6,962 nucleotides of DNA from a virus (taxonomy: Duplodnaviria > Heunggongvirae > Uroviricota > Caudoviricetes). The notes beneath the pieces are model-generated. The model did not search any database. It saw nothing but the letters and a program-made list of their open reading frames with translations, and was not told the origin of the DNA. The position numbers and the translations under genes are program-made. Location of the stretch: the IMG/VR virus record IMGVR_UViG_2690316099_000001. One strand, written 5' to 3'. Below, piece by piece: positions 1,782-6,962 of this stretch (position 1 is the stretch's first letter; the number at the start of each line of letters is the position of its first letter).

Positions 1782-2564
1782 TTATGCTGCCCTTTTCATT
1801 GCGAATGGAACGCGAACAAACACGATCTCTTTATAGCAGCGGCAGTTTGGCAGCTCGCCCGCGTGGCCGGTCATGCCGTCCAAAGTTGGAGGTGAATCCC
1901 AGCGGACGAATTTACCTTTCATGTGATCGTGGGAATCTCGGACATCGCCATCATCGGCTGTACGCCAAATATAACCATCCGAGCCAATAGCTATCGCTCG
2001 GGCCATATCCAGCGCGCCCGTTGCTCTTCCCAGTTCCGTTCGGGCAATCAGATCGGCCCTAGACTTAGCAACATCGCCGGTAGATGCAATCTCTTTAGCA
2101 AACTGCTCCGCCCGACCACCGGTGACAACAGCCTCTATCGCTTTGTTCTGGATGTCGTACACCCTGTCTGCGGCCTCGAGAGGCAGAGATTTGATGTACT
2201 TGACCTGTTCGGCGATGATGGATTGCATCACCTGGCCCACAGGAGCGCTTTCCACAAGATTGCGGAGCTCGCGACTGATGTTCTTGCTGTGTTGCCGCCA
2301 AACTTTCTCGTTCTGCCGGGTTAGGTCCGCAGTAAAGTTTTCCGCGACCTTTGTCGCCCAGGGGGTGATGATTTCACTGTAACGCTCCAGCGCCGCAATA
2401 ATTTCCGTGATACTGTCATTTGAACCATCGTAGCGACCATTTACGATGTCTCCGACCGCCCTCGCTATCCTGCGTAGGCTGGTTCGATACCGGATTTCCG
2501 CCTGACGGCTCCTGCGGTTCGTCATCAGGTTCGCCGATGCCGGGCGGCGCTTCATCTTCGGCAT
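1782..2564 (-). CDS. phage head morphogenesis protein, Mu F / SPP1 gp7 family
   Basis: 260-aa ORF. The C-terminal region (WRTADDGDVRDSHDHMKGKFVRWDSPPTLDGMTGHAGELPNCRCY) matches the conserved core of minor head / F-like proteins. GAGGA lies about 8 nt upstream of the ATG at 2564. The 5' end overlaps the portal 3' end out of frame, so the true start may be internal (for example ATG at 2525). Confidence 0.8.
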   Translation of the reverse strand: MPKMKRRPASANLMTNRRSRQAEIRYRTSLRRIARAVGDIVNGRYDGSNDSITEIIAALERYSEIITPWATKVAENFTADLTRQNEKVWRQHSKNISRELRNLVESAPVGQVMQSIIAEQVKYIKSLPLEAADRVYDIQNKAIEAVVTGGRAEQFAKEIASTGDVAKSRADLIARTELGRATGALDMARAIAIGSDGYIWRTADDGDVRDSHDHMKGKFVRWDSPPTLDGMTGHAGELPNCRCYKEIVFVRVPFAMKRAA

Positions 2565-3498
2565 TCTCGATGTCCTCGTCGGTAATGGATGCCCCGATGC
2601 CGGTTACGTCAGAATTTTCTCGCAAATCAGTCATAGCGGCTTTCAGTGTCATCAGACCATCACCCAGCGCCGTACTGATTGCGTTGGTGGTGTTTAACGC
2701 CACCGTTGAGCGATCGACATCAGACATTTGCCAGAGCGGGTTAAACTCAAACGTGAAATCGTCCGGCAGCGGCTTGCCAAGTTCCGAACGATGCATGATG
2801 TCCAGTATCCGCCGCACCGGAAGACGTAAACGCCTCTCCTGCAACGAACTGATGCGATCGTAATAGTTGGCAAGGTCTGCATCACCGGTAGAAAATCCTT
2901 TCGGGGACTGTCCGAACAACCGCACCAGTGGGATACCAACAGCGCCACTAATCTGTTCTACAAACTGCGAAAGGATGTCATCCAGACCACTGAAGCTGTA
3001 CTGATGGGTTTCAAACTTATCCCGCGAGTCCATGAGCGTCATGCCTTCATTACTCTGGAACTGTCGAATCAGGTCGATATTCTTCAGCAACGCTTCATAC
3101 GCAGGACCACCAAGTGCGATAAGCTCGCGTAGCTTCTCCACGCTGTAGGTACGCAAATGCGCCTTGTAGACCAGCTGCGCCGCGCCGACAGTAGCGCTGT
3201 CGAACGCGGTAAGACGATCCCAGATACGCTCTACAACCGACATTCCCCATTCGTTCTCGGTCATCTTCTGCTGAAATGGCAACGTGACGCCATCAAAGCG
3301 AATCAGGCGACTGTGATGAATGCGCCAGGCAGGAATTCCCGTTGCTGTGGTCACCACATCGTAAAACTCAGGTTTACCCAGGTCCGGCCCCATATCTTTA
3401 ATGCGGCGGGTCAGTGCCGGGTCGACCATCCAGCGGTCGAGCGGGAGAATCCCCTTAAACTTGCCCTTACCGATGGTTTCGGGTCGCAGCGGGGTCAT
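2416..3498 (-). CDS. phage portal protein (largest uninterrupted ORF; C-terminal about 360 aa of the portal reading frame)
   Basis: 360-aa ORF lying between the large terminase and the Mu F-like gene, the canonical portal position. It has an acidic C-terminal tail (DEDIENAEDEAPPGIGEPDDEPQEP). ATG at 3498 is preceded by GAGGGG. The same frame is open upstream to an ATG at 3882 apart from two TAG codons. Confidence 0.75.
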   Translation of the reverse strand: MTPLRPETIGKGKFKGILPLDRWMVDPALTRRIKDMGPDLGKPEFYDVVTTATGIPAWRIHHSRLIRFDGVTLPFQQKMTENEWGMSVVERIWDRLTAFDSATVGAAQLVYKAHLRTYSVEKLRELIALGGPAYEALLKNIDLIRQFQSNEGMTLMDSRDKFETHQYSFSGLDDILSQFVEQISGAVGIPLVRLFGQSPKGFSTGDADLANYYDRISSLQERRLRLPVRRILDIMHRSELGKPLPDDFTFEFNPLWQMSDVDRSTVALNTTNAISTALGDGLMTLKAAMTDLRENSDVTGIGASITDEDIENAEDEAPPGIGEPDDEPQEPSGGNPVSNQPTQDSEGGRRHRKWSLRWFK

Positions 3499-3882
3499 TG
3501 GTGCCTACCCCTCAATCATGATGAAACCCACCGCGCCGCCGTAGAGGCGCGACCATTTCAGCACGTCATTCAGCGCATCCCAGATTTGCAACTCATCCAG
3601 TTGTGATTCGAGAATGCCACGATCTTTTGCATCAATTTCCGAAGTGATGCGAATGCCTTTGCGGGTCATATCATCCGGGATAGCATCGACTGCTTCGCCG
3701 ATGATCTAGGATGAACGATAGGACCATTCCACCAGCATGCGGTTACGACTGGTGAAATTAGCCCGGTAGGTGGATGCTGAGTGCTGGTTAGGTGTCTGCA
3801 TCCCTACGCGGGCAATAAAATTCTCATAACCATCAGCTGTGGCCTGCACAGTTCGCCGCAGGGCTTGTTTGTTTCGTGCCAT
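3499..3882 (-). pseudogene. N-terminal part of the portal reading frame, separated from the main ORF by two in-frame TAG codons (3708..3706 and 3507..3505)
   Basis: ATG at 3882..3880 shares one base with the terL stop (TGA 3884..3882) and has GGGGAG upstream. Hand translation in this frame gives MARNKQALRRTVQATADGYENFIARVGMQTPNQHSASTYRANFTSRNRMLVEWSYRSS, then TAG, then IIGEAVDAIPDDMTRKGIRITSEIDAKDRGILESQLDELQIWDALNDVLKWSRLYGGAVGFIMIEG, then TAG, then AP and the MTPLRPE start of the 360-aa ORF. There is no frameshift. Confidence 0.6.
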
Positions 3883-5285
3883 CAGGCCTGTCTCCCCAGC
3901 TGTTCCCAGATATCCAGCGATGTATCGATTGGCGCGAAGGCCATAATGAATGCATCAGCAACGTTTGGTGACGGTATCTCGCGTTTTGCGAGGTCTTTTT
4001 TACTTTCGACCATCACACGTCCGTTACGGTCGAAATCACGATGAGGTGTTGTCAGTTCCAGTTTCAGCTTTTCAAGCAACGGACAACGAGAATCTATGCT
4101 GATCAGCTCATCCACAGGATACTGTTCTCCGTTGTTAATGGCGTTAAACGTATTTCTGAAACGGTCAGCCACCAGCCACCATGCCTGAGCCTTAAGATTT
4201 GCGAAAAAGTCTTTGTTGGGGATGCCGTTGTACTCGTCATCTGGCTCATGCACACCAGCACCGGCGTTAAACCTCTGGTAATTCACACGTCGCGCGTATG
4301 CGTTCTCGCTCTTCCGGTCAGCGTTAATTTCAGAGAATTTAGCACCGGCAGACGCACCAACACCGATAGAGTCGTAAACAATATCTGCTTCACGCTCCAG
4401 CGCCGCCTGATAAGTACGCTGGCAGCTCTTCAGTAATTCATCTTCTTTGGCCTTCCATTCGTCGGCCCAGAAAACAACGGATCCGTGACGGTAAACGTTA
4501 GCGCACTTATCTGTACCACTGTCAGCCACGTCAAAGCCAATACGCTTTCTTCCACTGGGTTCGAAATTTAACGTTTTGTGCGCATCCACTGCGGCTTCTA
4601 TCCAAGACAGTTTGATGATTGCCGCATCATCATCAGACTCCGGAACGCCCTCATACACATGTTTAAAACCATCCGGATCACGGCGTCGCGCCGCGTCGAT
4701 AACCTTAAGCATGGTGTCAGACAGAAACGGATTTTCGTCATAGTTAATTTTGCGGATGAGAGTGCCTTCGGGCGGATCAACAACGAAGTTGCGCCAGACG
4801 AAATCAGTAACAAGTCCGGGGTTGAATATGAACCAGCATTCCGAACCCTCTTTACGGATCGTTGGCTCCAGAATTTTCCACTGGTATTCCGTCAGTGCGT
4901 GGGCTTCTTCCAGCCACAACACATCGATCCCCTCCAGTGACTTAATTTCTTCGATGTTGCGCCATAATCCATAAAAAACAAATTCCGAGCCAGTAACCCG
5001 GTTAATGATTTTGTTGTTCAGAATACGGAAACGGTGCCGCAGACCAAACCTGTCTATCTGAATTTTGAGCAGGGTATACACCGACTCTTCGATTTTATTC
5101 TGGATCTGACGGGCACAACAAAAACGCAGGGTGTATTTATTCGACAGAAATATGGCAATGCCAGCGGCATCCCATGATTTTGACGATGACCGACCACCAT
5201 AAAGCACTTTGTTACGTGCCCGCATAGTCCAGAAACTACGTAAAGCCGGATTCAGCGTCGGTTTGGATGTCAGAGTAGAAGTCAT
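3882..5285 (-). CDS. terL: terminase large subunit
   Basis: Long ORF (maximal extent 3882..5393) with a P-loop-like motif near the N-terminus (VLYGGRSSSKSW), a Walker B-like DVLWLEEAH, and a C-terminal nuclease-like region with conserved acidic residues (GFDVADSGTD, VADAFIMAF). The first 50 or so codons of the maximal ORF overlap the terS 3' end out of frame, so the start is more likely internal. Chosen start is ATG 5285 (GGAGAG about 10 nt upstream); alternatives are ATG 5312 and ATG 5225. Confidence 0.8.
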   Translation of the reverse strand: MTSTLTSKPTLNPALRSFWTMRARNKVLYGGRSSSKSWDAAGIAIFLSNKYTLRFCCARQIQNKIEESVYTLLKIQIDRFGLRHRFRILNNKIINRVTGSEFVFYGLWRNIEEIKSLEGIDVLWLEEAHALTEYQWKILEPTIRKEGSECWFIFNPGLVTDFVWRNFVVDPPEGTLIRKINYDENPFLSDTMLKVIDAARRRDPDGFKHVYEGVPESDDDAAIIKLSWIEAAVDAHKTLNFEPSGRKRIGFDVADSGTDKCANVYRHGSVVFWADEWKAKEDELLKSCQRTYQAALEREADIVYDSIGVGASAGAKFSEINADRKSENAYARRVNYQRFNAGAGVHEPDDEYNGIPNKDFFANLKAQAWWLVADRFRNTFNAINNGEQYPVDELISIDSRCPLLEKLKLELTTPHRDFDRNGRVMVESKKDLAKREIPSPNVADAFIMAFAPIDTSLDIWEQLGRQA

Positions 5286-5820
5286 TGAGGTCACGCTCTC
5301 CATTGCCATCATCAATACCTGCATCACGGCGAAGACGATCAGCCTCCAGAGACACCTTATCAGTGGCGGCCTTGCGGTAGGCTGTATCAGCAAATATTTT
5401 TCCTACCGTCGCAAGCGTGCCAACGATGGACTCAATACGAACTGTATTGCGCATCATTGCTTTCTCGGCGGCGCTGATATTTTCAATCAGCATCTTCCTT
5501 TCCTGGTCCCCATTAGCATCTTCCAGCGACACCAACCACCGACCAATATTCTCTGCAGCGACAAGGTTGTTAGCACGAAGGCGAAATAATTCGTCCTCGA
5601 GCGTCAACGCTTTAGCGTCCTCTATCACCTCATCTTTGAGCAGAAGGCGACGGGCATAACCACCGTGTTTTAATGCCTGCTGGTTACCGGGTTGGAATGG
5701 GTTAGTCGGGGGATCGGTACGCATTCCGCGTATCGGTTTCGTATCCGGTGTAGATTCTGTTTTTAGTTGCGTACTTTTTTGTGTAAGGCCAGTAATGGCA
5801 GGCTTTCTGCTGGTACGCAC
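5236..5820 (-). CDS. terS: terminase small subunit (start uncertain)
   Basis: ORF immediately upstream of and overlapping terL, containing the motif NPFQPGNQQALKHGGY typical of many small terminase subunits. Stop is TAG at 5238..5236. The listed start is GTG at 5820, but the frame stays open upstream to the N block at 5895; an internal ATG at 5724 is an alternative start. Confidence 0.65.
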   Translation of the reverse strand: MRTSRKPAITGLTQKSTQLKTESTPDTKPIRGMRTDPPTNPFQPGNQQALKHGGYARRLLLKDEVIEDAKALTLEDELFRLRANNLVAAENIGRWLVSLEDANGDQERKMLIENISAAEKAMMRNTVRIESIVGTLATVGKIFADTAYRKAATDKVSLEADRLRRDAGIDDGNGERDLNDFYSDIQTDAESGFT

Positions 5821-5872
5821 TTTCCTTTTTTGCGTACCATTTTTGCAAACCTGCGTACCGCCACTGCGTGCC
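5716..5872. repeat. cluster of TGCGTACC / GGTACGCA octamer repeats with flanking T-tracts (candidate pac or TerS-binding site, or operator array)
   Basis: Copies at 5716-5723 (GGTACGCA), 5767-5774 (TTGCGTAC), 5812-5819 (GGTACGCA), 5831-5838 (TGCGTACC), 5852-5859 (TGCGTACC) and a variant at 5865-5872 (TGCGTGCC). Two direct copies are 21 bp apart. 5812-5838 forms an inverted pair GGTACGC...GCGTACC. By eye I found only one other full octamer in the window (3148-3155). Confidence 0.5.
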
Positions 5873-5895
5873 CAACCAAGCTTTTTGGCCCTCTT

Positions 5896-5945
5896 NNNNN
5901 NNNNNNNNNNNNNNNNNNNNNNNNNNNNNNNNNNNNNNNNNNNNN
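5896..5945. other. 50-nt run of N (masked or unresolved sequence) inside the 5' region of the small terminase locus
   Basis: Direct observation of n characters. Confidence 0.95.
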
Positions 5946-6018
5946 GTAACGCCGTATTTCTCGCCTATATCACGGAGGCTAAGGACTCCGGCCCGGTATG
6001 CCGATTCGATGGCCTCCC
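5946..6018 (-). other. unmasked island between N blocks; minus-strand frame encodes a helix-turn-helix-like peptide (EAIESAYRAGVLSLRDIGEKYGVT), possibly the small terminase N-terminal DNA-binding domain or a separate small HTH protein
   Basis: Only one of the three minus frames is open across the island, and its hydrophobic pattern and the GEKYGV turn resemble HTH DNA-binding segments. It is out of register by one nucleotide with the terS frame across the 50-nt N block. Confidence 0.3.
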
Positions 6019-6247
6019 NNNNNNNNNNNNNNNNNNNNNNNNNNNNNNNNNNNNNNNNNNNNNNNNNNNNNNNNNNNNNNNNNNNNNNNNNNNNNNNNNN
6101 NNNNNNNNNNNNNNNNNNNNNNNNNNNNNNNNNNNNNNNNNNNNNNNNNNNNNNNNNNNNNNNNNNNNNNNNNNNNNNNNNNNNNNNNNNNNNNNNNNNN
6201 NNNNNNNNNNNNNNNNNNNNNNNNNNNNNNNNNNNNNNNNNNNNNNN
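6019..6247. other. 229-nt run of N (masked or unresolved sequence) covering the divergent intergenic region between terS and the DedA-like gene
   Basis: Direct observation of n characters. Confidence 0.95.
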
Positions 6248-6263
6248 AGAAGGAAAGACATTG

Positions 6264-6773
6264 ATGGAGTGGATAAATGCTTTGATGAACTATTTTGTAC
6301 TTCATCCATATCGCCTATGGGGGCTTCTTTTTATAATAGCGTTCACAAAATCCACTTTACTCATTTCGGCGATATTGCCACCAGCATCAATTATGATGGC
6401 CACTGTAATTACAGTCAGCAAGACGACTCTTTCACCATGGGAAGCTGGAATCACGGTCATGAGTGGCGCATGGTGCGGTACTATCGTTAATTACCATCTT
6501 GGTATAATAATTGGGCATATCCCTCAACTTGCATGTATAATATCAAGCCGTTCCAATACAATAGAACGGGTTCGCCTTCAGTTGCAAAATAACTCTGTGT
6601 CAATACTTTTCACTTCGCGCTTTATCGCCGTGCTGCGTTATATTGCTCCTTTGGTGGCAGGAATGTTGCAACTTCATCCAGTGAAAGTGTATACAGTGAG
6701 TCTGATTTCAGCTGCTAGCTGGTCAGCACTTTATGTTGGTAGTTTTAGCTTCGTGTTGCCTTTTTTTAGCTAA
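6264..6773 (+). CDS. DedA/TVP38-like small integral membrane protein
   Basis: ATG at 6264 is preceded by AAGGA about 9 nt upstream; TAA at 6771..6773. The 169-aa product is very hydrophobic with several predicted transmembrane segments, and the segment SRFIAVLRYIAPLVAGM resembles the DedA-family signature (R-F/Y-x3-R-x-h-P-x-h-A-G). The gene is visibly AT-richer than the phage genes. Confidence 0.5.
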   Translation: MEWINALMNYFVLHPYRLWGLLFIIAFTKSTLLISAILPPASIMMATVITVSKTTLSPWEAGITVMSGAWCGTIVNYHLGIIIGHIPQLACIISSRSNTIERVRLQLQNNSVSILFTSRFIAVLRYIAPLVAGMLQLHPVKVYTVSLISAASWSALYVGSFSFVLPFFS

Positions 6774-6962
6774 ACTGCCCATAAAAAGCTCTTGCGAATC
6801 CAGCTTCCCCCATTCCTCTGACAACAGAATCTGATTTGAAGGATAATGAGTAAAATTACCGCTACCCCCCAAGGCATTGGATCCTGATGTACTCCTGAAG
6901 CATTCTCAATGCTGTCTGGTCGCTGATGATTCCGTCCCGGATACCGAGAACGTTTCGTCCAG

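Follow-up and report, generated by a model that had tools for sequence, protein, structure and literature searches.

Morons are well known from the slot directly downstream of Rz and before the packaging genes, where phage lambda carries bor and the DLP12 prophage of E. coli K-12 carries borD, both oriented against the late operon. They encode small envelope proteins for the lysogen, Bor being a lipoprotein of the outer membrane. The borD gene, which we take to be identical to vboR, has a perfect PhoP box (12/12) located 69 nt before its ATG. The regulation of vboR has been addressed in an earlier study in which it was treated as a PhoP-regulated gene (PMC2789325). The PhoP box reads (T/G)GTTTA-N5-(T/G)GTTTA in direct orientation and lies about 12 nt upstream of the -10 hexamer (architecture I/II, PMC3335776). 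The second group of closely related systems comprises the DedA proteins, in whose core an amphipathic helix, a re-entrant helix-loop-helix and a transmembrane helix form a unit that occurs twice (PMC7818093). In YqjA the residues E39, D51, R130, R136 and S52 are functionally required, and in UptA of Bacillus subtilis R112, R118, E32 and W146 contribute to C55-P binding, with E32 being the hydrogen-bond partner of R118.

In our study we analyzed a window of 6,962 nt, i.e. the whole stretch of DNA, which belongs to a decaying lambda-like prophage of Shigella and E. coli. In Shigella and entero-invasive E. coli this prophage has become defective. A near-identical E. coli prophage locus (L001, 99.9% identity to the window) was used as reference for the masked DNA. 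The window contains a DedA-like gene that takes the position of bor and borD and is oriented as they are. The gene and its surroundings comprise the following features.

1 to 32, no strand assigned: terminus of IS1, identical at 32/32 positions to the IS1A flank of L001
2416 to 3882, minus strand: portal (DUF1073) pseudogene with two nonsense codons, W59* and Q126*, relative to L001
3882 to 5393, minus strand: terL (large terminase), intact in the window
5236 to 6018, minus strand: terS (small terminase), PHROG 370, E=7.5e-95, divergent from the DedA-like gene
6019 to 6247, no strand assigned: masked stretch (N) of 229 nt, the counterpart of which in L001 has 197 nt
6250 to 6254, plus strand: Shine-Dalgarno-like AAGGA, 9 nt 5' of the ATG at 6264, read directly from the sequence
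6264 to 6773, plus strand: short gene for a DedA/VTT-domain inner-membrane protein, ORF intact, 169 aa plus stop
6774 to 6815, no strand assigned: 3' flank of the DedA-like gene, specific to DedA-carrying prophages, where the match to the Citrobacter cassette ends after ~10 nt
6816 to 6962, minus strand: Rz-side DNA with 86-88% identity to more than 1400 E. coli prophages

The only prophage edge visible in the window is the IS1 end, which truncates the prophage directly left of the gp24 head gene. Decay is evident from stops or IS elements in the portal, MuF and terL genes, with IS2 or another IS interrupting terL in L001 as well as L015/L016, while the DedA-like ORF stays intact. The terS gene is interrupted by masking at 5896-5945 and enters the large mask at 6019. 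As the mask differs in length from its counterpart in L001, positions within it are not exactly transferable. The matching DNA of L001 contains the terS start codon (L001 11819), a spacer of ~120 nt that is confined to these prophages and the conserved 72-nt upstream part of the cassette (L001 11942-12013). In L001 terS starts ~195 nt 5' of the DedA-like gene, and in the window the terS start falls within the masked stretch. The Rz-side DNA consists of 46 nt past the Rz stop and the 3' end of an Rz-like spanin gene (6862-6962 with the stop at 6862; PHROG 13, E=4.9e-74), which is found 88 nt downstream of the DedA-like gene, and the lysis cassette runs on past the end of the window.

The DedA-like gene is best read as a moron, an independent cargo cassette located between the lysis genes (holin, lysozyme, Rz) and the packaging genes (terS, terL), and it is antiparallel to the phage late operon. 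The cassette of ~595 bp comprises 72 nt upstream, the ORF and 10 nt downstream (L001 11942-12536). It was also found, with 82.5% identity and in the same slot, in a lambdoid prophage of Citrobacter youngae. The head and packaging genes of that prophage (lambda-type GpA terminase, portal and ClpP-capsid module) are unrelated to those of the E. coli prophage, and homology between the two is limited to the 595-bp cassette. In E. coli prophages with a 98%-identical terS homology ends exactly at the terS start and the DedA-like gene is absent, and prophages sharing the 3' end of Rz lose homology 46 nt beyond the Rz stop. The slot is empty or otherwise filled in related prophages. Besides, the gene differs in composition from its phage neighbours, with a GC content of 0.418 and a GC3 of 0.382 compared to 0.49-0.55 and 0.49-0.61, respectively, for gp24, DUF2213, MuF, portal, terL and terS. 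The distinct composition, the opposite strand, the absence from prophages with a 98%-identical terS and the discrete cassette in an unrelated Citrobacter prophage therefore indicate that the cargo was acquired horizontally. This agrees with the earlier note, which had described an AT-richer gene divergent from the packaging genes and had suggested a horizontally acquired moron as one of two readings.

A comparison of the bor and DedA cassettes revealed no DNA homology, and Bor has no sequence or fold relation to the DedA-like protein. A borD remnant beneath the cassette was considered and rejected, as homology to DLP12 is confined to the lysozyme gene and the 5' portion of Rz, with no DNA derived from borD. 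Among 50,697 phage records there was no close homologue of the protein, and the matches in a few of these records were to host-like DedA genes with only 24-30% identity. A candidate for a third phage context, the IMG/VR homologue L097 (73% identity), was also rejected. There the gene lies next to, but not within, a Mu-like prophage, on the side of the c repressor, and therefore probably belongs to the host flank.

Within the DedA family the protein falls into a narrow subfamily of Enterobacterales, which was captured from a bacterial chromosome. In about 31 species of Enterobacter, Lelliottia and Hafnia the gene is chromosomal, syntenic and compositionally native, and the same applies to Morganella and Arsenophonus. 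An MgtE-like transporter gene adjoins the subfamily gene in Enterobacter, Lelliottia, Hafnia and several Arsenophonus. Two observations indicate that the DedA-like ORF is a real gene and not a chance ORF, namely dN/dS values of 0.24 versus the Citrobacter prophage copy and of 0.15 versus the chromosomal copy of C. amalonaticus, and 32 invariant columns in an alignment of 20 homologues. The ORF is under purifying selection. Between the window and L001 it differs solely by a synonymous change, and an identical, intact ORF is present on at least 1000 contigs. Recent clonal spread, and not selection, could account for its retention in Shigella.

The automatic annotation by PGAP places the start at a TTG one codon earlier (6261), resulting in a protein of 170 aa (WP_011069285.1), and the gene product is already named "DedA family protein". 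In the literature that we searched, no paper was found that mentions accessions of this protein or subfamily. The assignment as a DedA-like membrane protein, also made in the earlier note, was confirmed by a profile search in which residues 41-161 matched positions 3-121 of the 123 positions of the Pfam VTT_dom model PF09335 (E=9.2e-14; 52.4 bits, gathering score 33.9). The scores for the NCBIfam equivalog models were far below the cut-offs (31 bits versus 236 for PRK10847; 19.9 versus 250 and 16.3 versus 300 for the UptA models). Hydropathy and an AF2 model based on a 117-sequence alignment (pLDDT 81.8, pTM 0.76) point to a polytopic helical membrane protein with helices at 2-12; 15-35, loop 36-41, 42-52; 58-84; 87-109; 111-118, loop 119-123, 124-134; and 139-168. 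In this predicted model the helices match the DedA core with regard to their order, and a PDB search yielded no DedA structure for comparison. The product is thus modelled as a minimal DedA core with amphipathic helix, re-entrant hairpin and transmembrane helix, twice over.

With YqjA and YghB the protein has the VTT domain, a conserved Trp and, according to the AF2 model, two re-entrant loops in common, but the identity is only 18-23%. The Arg pair R130/R136 of YqjA corresponds to R119/R125 and S52, the Ser after the first loop, to S42; the equivalents of R112, R118 and W146 of UptA are conserved as well. Both Arg residues are conserved without exception in the subfamily and align with the K-12 paralogues. 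In the best 150 representatives of a search of 1.84 billion, Arg was found at these positions in 137 and 142 cases, respectively. S42 and W153 are also retained in the subfamily, the signature of which reads K29-S30-T31, L38-P39-P40-A41-S42, R119-F120...R125 and W153. In contrast, the Glu that corresponds to E39 of YqjA and E32 of UptA is replaced by Lys29 in 20/20 subfamily members. Glu or Asp occupies this position in 131 of the best 150 matches, and Lys is found there solely in 15 members of the subfamily. Furthermore, G50-D51 of YqjA is changed to Pro-Ala, so that the counterpart of the P-G-D loop reads P39-P40-A41-S42, and this PPAS motif is likewise invariant (20/20). The D51 position varies among other DedA clades (A/T/S/V/D in the best 150 matches) and is therefore a weaker criterion for YqjA/YghB-type membership.

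DedA proteins of the YqjA/YghB type have further transmembrane helices on either side of the core and a length of about 200-250 aa. Compared to YqjA and YghB with their 219-220 aa, the 169-aa protein lacks the C-terminal transmembrane helix and the N-terminal extension. The alignment stops at the last core helix, where the K-12 paralogues are 35-90 residues longer, and their N-termini are longer too. A length of 167-180 aa is found throughout the subfamily. Judged by its residues, the protein appears to be an undescribed variant of the DedA family, a bare core with Lys in place of a near-universal Glu. YqjA depends on this Glu, and its loss here may indicate that the activity is another one or that the classical activity is lacking. 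PAP2 proteins are a lipid-phosphate phosphatase family, and an exhaustive search identified DedA-PAP2(-LssY_C) fusions of about 650-690 aa as the nearest relatives outside the subfamily (E=1e-12 to 1e-8, 24-32% identity over the whole DedA domain). Like our protein these fusions have no Asp at the D51 position. However, they keep the Glu (ESL...PGA) and add a lipid-phosphate phosphatase domain and further helices, whereas the DedA-like protein represents the core alone. Minimal DedA-like core proteins of archaea (e.g. Mt2055, 168 aa, PF06695), likened here by description, belong to another Pfam family and another domain of life.

As the stretch upstream of the gene is masked in the window, we analyzed the region in L001 and in orthologues. 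The L001 sequence contains a repeat, TGTTTA-AGCCT-AAATTA at -69, which is followed by 13 nt and TTAAAT, and this box-like repeat is found at the same distance from the start codon as the PhoP box of borD. The match of the Shigella/E. coli copy to the PhoP box is 9/12, a value also reached by about 34% of shuffled upstream regions. The copy has a 13-nt spacing or, alternatively, a 6-nt spacer, and it fails the composite motif. This motif, which consists of a PhoP-like box, 12 nt and TTAAAT, was present at -62 to -71 in the Citrobacter and Enterobacter copies and in 0.015% of shuffles. The orthologues of Enterobacter and Lelliottia carry a perfect box at about -103 as well as a 10/12 box at about -66 that is followed by 12 nt and TTAAAT, and in Enterobacter the perfect box sits in the intergenic region shared with the MgtE-like gene. 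The copies of Citrobacter and of the C. youngae phage have a 9-10/12 box with 12-nt spacing. The orthologues thus seem to carry a conserved PhoP-box-like promoter, and the box of the Shigella copy appears to be eroded. Because its second half-site is degenerate, PhoP control of the Shigella/E. coli copy is uncertain. In a S. flexneri phoPQ microarray study the DedA-like gene is mentioned neither in the main text nor in the supplementary files, as far as these were accessible. A consensus scan showed no sigma-70 promoter upstream of the gene and no intrinsic terminators anywhere in L001 11700-12720. The gene's own conserved 72-nt upstream segment carries the box-plus-TTAAAT element.

Taken as a whole, these data are best explained, with somewhat better than even confidence, by a moron in the bor slot that encodes a minimal DedA protein handling a membrane lipid for the lysogen and that has its own promoter. 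Like other DedA proteins, the two re-entrant loops would bind the phosphate head group of a lipid and move the lipid across the inner membrane, with the Arg pair R119/R125 together with S42 and W153 being the loop residues presumably involved. The most likely substrate would be undecaprenyl phosphate or a related polyprenyl carrier, and an anionic phospholipid is the alternative. Since the near-universal titratable Glu is replaced by Lys, the protein probably works without proton coupling of the YqjA type, or on a more anionic head group. Expression from its own promoter, which shows PhoP architecture in the orthologues, would benefit the lysogen through envelope maintenance or antimicrobial-peptide tolerance and would not serve the phage lytic cycle. 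The prophage that carries the cassette is defective, but the cassette itself has stayed intact. With such expression the protein would resemble Bor as a small envelope protein for the lysogen.

Other explanations were considered as well. The earlier note had placed the moron at the end of the prophage or, alternatively, had taken the gene for the first host-side gene, with the boundary near the masked region; the mask would then hide the prophage-chromosome junction. A composition unlike that of the neighbouring phage genes, chromosomal orthologues in other genera and L097, which does adjoin the outside of a Mu-like prophage end, are in line with this proposal. However, the phage genes continue rightward of Rz in L001 and L079 with lysozyme, holin, a tRNA cluster, Q-like, replication and immunity genes, and the counterpart of the mask in L001 holds only the terS start and upstream DNA of the cassette and not an attachment site. 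This gene order rules out a boundary or a host gene for this locus, and we give the proposal virtually no credence. The gene as found is a moron of the textbook kind in a slot well known for such cargo, and the main value of the analysis is the corrected interpretation of the boundary. The neighbourhood of the lysis cassette in two unrelated lambdoid prophages might instead suggest that the protein serves the phage, either in lysis timing (antiholin- or spanin-related) or by blocking superinfection through changes to the inner membrane or to DNA entry. Such functions would suit a protein that is small, polytopic and located in the inner membrane, and there is a weak match to PHROG 33251, a phage family of unknown function (E=3.4e-7). 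Nevertheless, the strand opposite to the late operon, the gene's own conserved upstream region and orthologues in more than 50 species, which are vertically inherited, syntenic chromosomal genes without phage neighbours, argue against a role in the phage cycle. Moreover, a PADLOC search gave no defence match and close homologues were absent from the phage records, and we consider a phage function quite unlikely.

The altered residues could also be read as signs of a neutral or decaying passenger, in which the exchange of Glu for Lys and the lack of flanking helices point to a DedA remnant without function that persists only owing to the young age of the prophage remnant. The residues E39 and D51 essential in YqjA are indeed not conserved, the surrounding prophage is visibly decaying and the promoter box of the Shigella/E. 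coli copy appears eroded. On the other hand, neither K29 nor the PPAS loop varies among the 20 members, some of which are long-diverged chromosomal copies, and the short length is common to the whole subfamily. Together with the low dN/dS and the solely synonymous difference from L001, this makes a mere passenger very unlikely. Another function is suggested by the MgtE-like neighbour of chromosomal orthologues and by the perfect PhoP box in the shared intergenic region in Enterobacter. The protein might contribute to Mg2+ (divalent-cation) homeostasis or might modulate host DedA proteins through hetero-dimerisation, rather than transport a lipid carrier itself. According to the title of a paper (PMC10846249), DedA family proteins of Klebsiella pneumoniae are redundant in divalent cation homeostasis and in resistance to phagocytosis, and a dimer model of YqjA places the re-entrant hairpins at the interface. 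However, the MgtE neighbour is absent in Morganella, Citrobacter, Kosakonia and both phage contexts. Its orientation is divergent in Enterobacter and tandem in Arsenophonus, and the adjacency may therefore be inherited synteny. We regard this function as unlikely.

The lipid-handling moron can be extended to a more far-reaching scenario. In this, a phage-mobilised, charge-reversed DedA subfamily would have been part of ancestral PhoP/low-Mg2+ envelope remodelling and would act on another or more anionic head group than UptA and YqjA, e.g. undecaprenyl pyrophosphate or a modified polyprenyl carrier. In Shigella the gene would have been kept from a dead prophage for cationic-peptide tolerance or intracellular survival, as a functional counterpart of bor in the same slot. 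Such a scenario is speculative and, as a whole, of low probability.

For the DedA field the subfamily represents a natural mutant series that could separate lipid binding (Arg pair) from proton coupling (acidic residues). Moreover, a DedA gene has moved between unrelated temperate phages along with a short host-type regulatory region and was retained in Shigella amid prophage decay. The strongly footprinted, putative PhoP-box promoter beside the MgtE-like gene in the Enterobacter orthologues could bear on PhoPQ-dependent colistin heteroresistance in this genus. A comparison of the composition with relatives named no donor of the cassette. The GC3 of the Shigella copy is 0.38-0.40, and values of 0.42-0.46 were found for Citrobacter, about 0.50 for Kosakonia, up to 0.80 for Enterobacter and 0.26 for Arsenophonus, which among the closest relatives is the only one with a GC3 below that of the Shigella copy.

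The open reading frame at 6264-6773 almost certainly encodes a DedA-fold membrane protein. A profile search matched residues 41-161 of its product to the Pfam VTT domain PF09335 (E=9.2e-14; 52.4 bits, exceeding the gathering score of 33.9), the DedA/TVP38/TMEM41 domain (Pfam), which upheld the DedA-like character proposed in an earlier note on this DNA. The NCBIfam DedA and UptA equivalog models scored weakly, with 16-31 bits at cut-offs of 236-300. In the RefSeq pipeline the gene starts one codon earlier with TTG and its product is named "DedA family protein" (WP_011069285.1). The gene had also been described as AT-richer than and compositionally different from the phage genes, and this was confirmed by a GC of 0.418 and a GC3 of 0.382 compared to 0.49-0.55 and 0.49-0.61 in the six phage genes to its left. 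The features of the window are as follows.

1-32: IS1 terminus, 32/32 identical to the IS1A flank in L001 (NZ_CP065615, a near-identical E. coli prophage locus), abutting the gp24 head gene
2416-3882, minus strand: portal pseudogene with nonsense mutations W59* and Q126* relative to L001
5896-5945: masked N-run hiding a portion of the terS 5' region
6019-6247: masked N-run hiding the terS 5' part and the DNA upstream of the DedA gene
9 nt upstream of the DedA reading frame, plus strand: Shine-Dalgarno-like AAGGA, read from the sequence
6264-6773, plus strand: DedA-family open reading frame, intact, 169 amino acids
6862-6962: 3' end of an Rz-like spanin gene, from the L001 gene order and PHROGs

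Among 5,426 complete E. coli genomes, six match window positions 6248-6962 at 99.4-99.9% identity. On the minus strand of L001, Q-like genes, a tRNA cluster, a class II holin, the lysozyme RrrD and an Rz-type "lysis protein" precede the DedA gene, and a 254-aa protein, terL, portal (DUF1073), MuF, DUF2213, Gp24 and tail genes follow it; the DedA gene itself lies on the plus strand between the Rz-type gene and the gene of the 254-aa protein. In PHROGs the latter matched small terminase (E=7.5e-95); for the "lysis protein" the match was Rz-like spanin (E=4.9e-74). Therefore, window 6862-6962 is the spanin 3' end and the prophage runs well past the window. In an ipaH-carrying E. coli O121 locus (L079) the prophage also continues past the spanin side, with immunity, replication and recombination genes. 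The alternative that the DedA gene marks the prophage end or is the first host-side gene is thus refuted, as it is internal with phage genes on both sides. It occupies the position of lambda bor. Likewise, borD of the K-12 prophage DLP12 lies in this slot, directly after rzpD, on the opposite strand and ahead of the packaging gene nohD. Where the two masks measure 50 and 229 nt, L001 has collinear stretches of 16 and 197 nt; either the N-runs do not reflect the true lengths or the window genome holds about 32-34 extra bases per site, and positions within the masks are not exactly transferable from L001.

The gene forms a discrete cassette that is mobile. terS is 95-99% identical in about 130 E. 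coli genomes, whose homology to L001 ends exactly at the terS start codon (L001 11821). PEC399, one example of these, carries a different lysis module and a 61-aa reading frame in the slot, and the DedA gene is absent there. The spanin 3' end is found at 86-88% in more than 1,400 genomes, with similarity reaching only to 46 nt beyond the spanin stop (window 6816); in one of them, non-coding DNA and a spanin fragment alone lie ahead of a Nu1-like gene. The closest homologue of the window protein (78% amino acid identity) comes from Citrobacter youngae and related samples. The prophage around it is lambdoid but a different one, having a GpA-type terminase, a lambda-type portal and a ClpP-capsid fusion; the homologue is again placed between lysis genes and terminase and runs counter to the phage genes. 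At the DNA level the two prophages resemble each other only over L001 11942-12536 (82.5% identity), from 72 nt before the ATG to 10 nt after the stop codon. None of 50,697 deposited phage genomes contained a close homologue, and IMG/VR held 14 near-identical provirus fragments, the C. youngae one and one 73% copy. The 73% copy (L097 2179-6510) adjoins the c-repressor/MuA end of a Mu-like prophage from outside, with SRAP, SMEK and Macro-domain genes as neighbours, and is probably host flank swept into the provirus call.

Foreign composition, the absence of the gene beside a closely similar terS and the cassette in the unrelated C. youngae prophage support the proposed horizontally acquired cargo gene, and we regard it as very probable that the DedA gene is a moron inside the prophage. 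The cassette is independently organised, compositionally foreign and placed in the bor slot. Morons in the lysis-packaging gap are a known kind of element, the superfamily is known and the gene had already been annotated automatically; the exact placement, the cassette boundaries and the recurrence in two unrelated prophages are modestly new. A 120-nt spacer that only these prophages have separates the terS start from the cassette; in it, at L001 11886-11925 (a masked part of the window), an inverted repeat, ACTCCTG...CAGGAGT, flanks a G+C-rich 25-nt loop.

The window prophage is defective, with its portal pseudogene and a truncation on the structural-gene side by IS1. L001 shows an internal stop in MuF and an IS2 in terL, two further copies (L015, L016) have terL broken by another IS, and L079 carries IS600 and IS911 insertions and a truncated terS. 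These independent lesions among hosts point to parallel decay of the same prophage. The DedA reading frame is intact in all of them, and window and L001 differ in it by a single, synonymous change. Two results contradict the idea that the gene itself is a decaying remnant: its unusual residues do not vary across the subfamily, and dN/dS is 0.24 in comparison with the Citrobacter phage copy and 0.15 with the chromosomal copy of C. amalonaticus. These comparisons indicate that the cassette is selectively constrained. The exact 169/170-aa sequence occurs on at least 1,000 contigs, with names mostly of Shigella flexneri, S. sonnei and S. dysenteriae, which fits selective retention, with clonal spread as an alternative. 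The same decayed prophage in the entero-invasive type O121 carries the T3SS effector gene ipaHa beyond the tail-fibre genes (L079 7553-9316), so that DedA moron and virulence effector share one prophage remnant. In the intact relative L001, a four-tRNA cluster (Ile, Arg, Thr, Gly; 14474-14784) upstream of the holin gene and hokD with a QueH (epoxyqueuosine reductase) gene (17767-18815) are more cargo of this element.

An exhaustive HMMER search of 1.84 billion cluster representatives returned no more than 15 proteins with E<=1e-10; at E<=1e-3 the number was 583. With one genome scanned per GTDB species, the subfamily was found in 64 species, exclusively Enterobacterales.

Identity of subfamily copies to the window protein
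Shigella / E. coli: 100%
C. youngae: 78%
C. meridianamericanus, Kosakonia: 72-74%
C. amalonaticus: 57%
About 31 Enterobacter / Lelliottia / Hafnia species: 43-53%
Arsenophonus, Morganella: 36-43%

Only the Shigella/E. coli and C. youngae copies are flanked by phage genes. The Enterobacter/Lelliottia/Hafnia copies form one synteny group, those of Morganella another and those of Arsenophonus a few, and chromosomal copies are native in composition (GC3 up to 0.80 in Enterobacter, 0.26 in Arsenophonus). The family is therefore a chromosomal gene of several genera, inherited vertically and acquired by temperate phages.

The cassette almost certainly encodes a minimal DedA-fold inner-membrane protein. 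Aligned with five K-12 paralogues (YqjA, YghB, DedA, YabI, YohD; 18-23% identity), it keeps the arginine pair (R119/R125, YqjA R130/R136) as well as the first-loop Pro and Ser and the Trp (W153), whereas YqjA E39 is replaced by Lys29 and G50-D51 by Pro40-Ala41, and the protein stops where the paralogues extend into another transmembrane helix. YqjA function requires E39, D51, R130, R136 and S52, which cluster at the modelled dimer centre (bioRxiv 10.64898/2026.09.20.752871; PMC7818093), and in B. subtilis UptA, undecaprenyl-phosphate binding involves the equivalents R112, R118, E32 and W146 (PMC11474028). All 20 subfamily members share K29-S30-T31 and P39-P40-A41-S42 without variation. Among the 150 nearest representatives, the E39 position holds Glu or Asp in 131 and Lys in 15 subfamily members only; the D51 position is variable (A/T/S/V/D), so that the Glu-to-Lys exchange alone counts as truly unusual. 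The narrow Lys-for-Glu subfamily with a minimal DedA core, newly recognised here, is likewise a modest novelty. The nearest relatives outside it are fusion proteins of about 650-690 aa in which DedA, PAP2 lipid-phosphate phosphatase and LssY_C domains are combined, a weak "guilt by fusion" that may hint at polyprenyl or phospholipid phosphate chemistry.

Members of the DedA family transport lipids, those of the UptA type recycling undecaprenyl phosphate; in Burkholderia and Klebsiella, DedA members are reportedly needed for colistin resistance. Based on this family knowledge, R119/R125, S42 and W153 would bind a phosphate-bearing membrane lipid, whose transbilayer movement the window protein would ease. 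Lys in place of the titratable Glu would speak against YqjA-like proton coupling and render the site more cationic, which would favour facilitation without coupling or, alternatively, a head group of more anionic character. The lysogen would benefit through envelope maintenance under PhoPQ-type stress. The specific polyprenyl-phosphate role is less likely than not. A function in the phage cycle, namely lysis timing or superinfection exclusion, is suggested by a single pointer, the adjoining lysis genes, and is opposed by the widespread non-phage orthologues in chromosomes. By synteny and analogy, the protein might also take part in Mg2+ homeostasis or modulate the DedA proteins of the host: in Enterobacter, Lelliottia and Hafnia the subfamily gene is divergent from a CBS-MgtE-type divalent-cation transporter gene (L026 6614-8001, likewise in L023-L053), and several Arsenophonus have this transporter (56% identical) directly downstream of it (L006 8001-10050).

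As the window is masked upstream of the DedA gene, regulatory motifs were read from relatives. The PhoP box consensus is (T/G)GTTTA-N5-(T/G)GTTTA, and architecture I/II promoters have it in direct orientation, with 12 nt between it and the -10 hexamer downstream (PMC3335776). TGTT(T/G)A-N5-GATTGA is present at -65 to -68 in the C. youngae phage copy, C. meridianamericanus and C. amalonaticus, followed after 12 nt by TTAAAT; apart from this motif, BLAST detected no similarity between the upstream DNA of C. amalonaticus and that of the phage copy. Enterobacter and Lelliottia show (T/C)GTTGA-N5-TATTTA, 12 nt and T(T/A)AAT at the same position, and in about 25 species another box, some 37 nt upstream of this one, is perfect (12/12), a score reached by 0/3,300 shuffles. 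In a 14-species alignment the invariant columns fall on the four half-sites and two -10-like elements, with variable spacers, and the composite motif occurred in 0.015% of shuffled upstream regions. This suggests a newly found, footprinted PhoP-type promoter in the chromosomal relatives. The perfect box of Enterobacter, also footprinted, lies in the intergenic region common to the subfamily gene and the divergent MgtE-like gene, at a distance of about 36 nt to a TATTAT on the strand of the transporter, and may serve the latter gene. The composite motif is absent from the Arsenophonus, Morganella and Kosakonia copies.

In the Shigella/E. coli cassette, the 72-nt upstream part contains TGTTTA-AGCCT-AAATTA from -69 relative to the ATG and TTAAAT 13 nt on. 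This copy scores 9/12 as a PhoP box, which 34% of shuffles reach, and, owing to degeneracy of the second half-site or to one inserted nucleotide, does not match the composite pattern. A consensus scan found neither a sigma-70 promoter upstream of the DedA gene nor a terminator around it, and the main text and the examined supplementary files of an S. flexneri phoPQ study do not mention the gene. PhoP control of the Shigella/E. coli copy has about an even chance at best. In K-12 DLP12 (L080 3395-3480), a perfect PhoP box, TGTTTAGGGTTTGTTTA, begins 69 nt ahead of the ATG of borD, presumably the gene also called vboR. This distance equals that of the box-like repeat in the DedA cassette, which shares the slot. 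vboR is listed among PhoP-regulated genes (PMC2789325).
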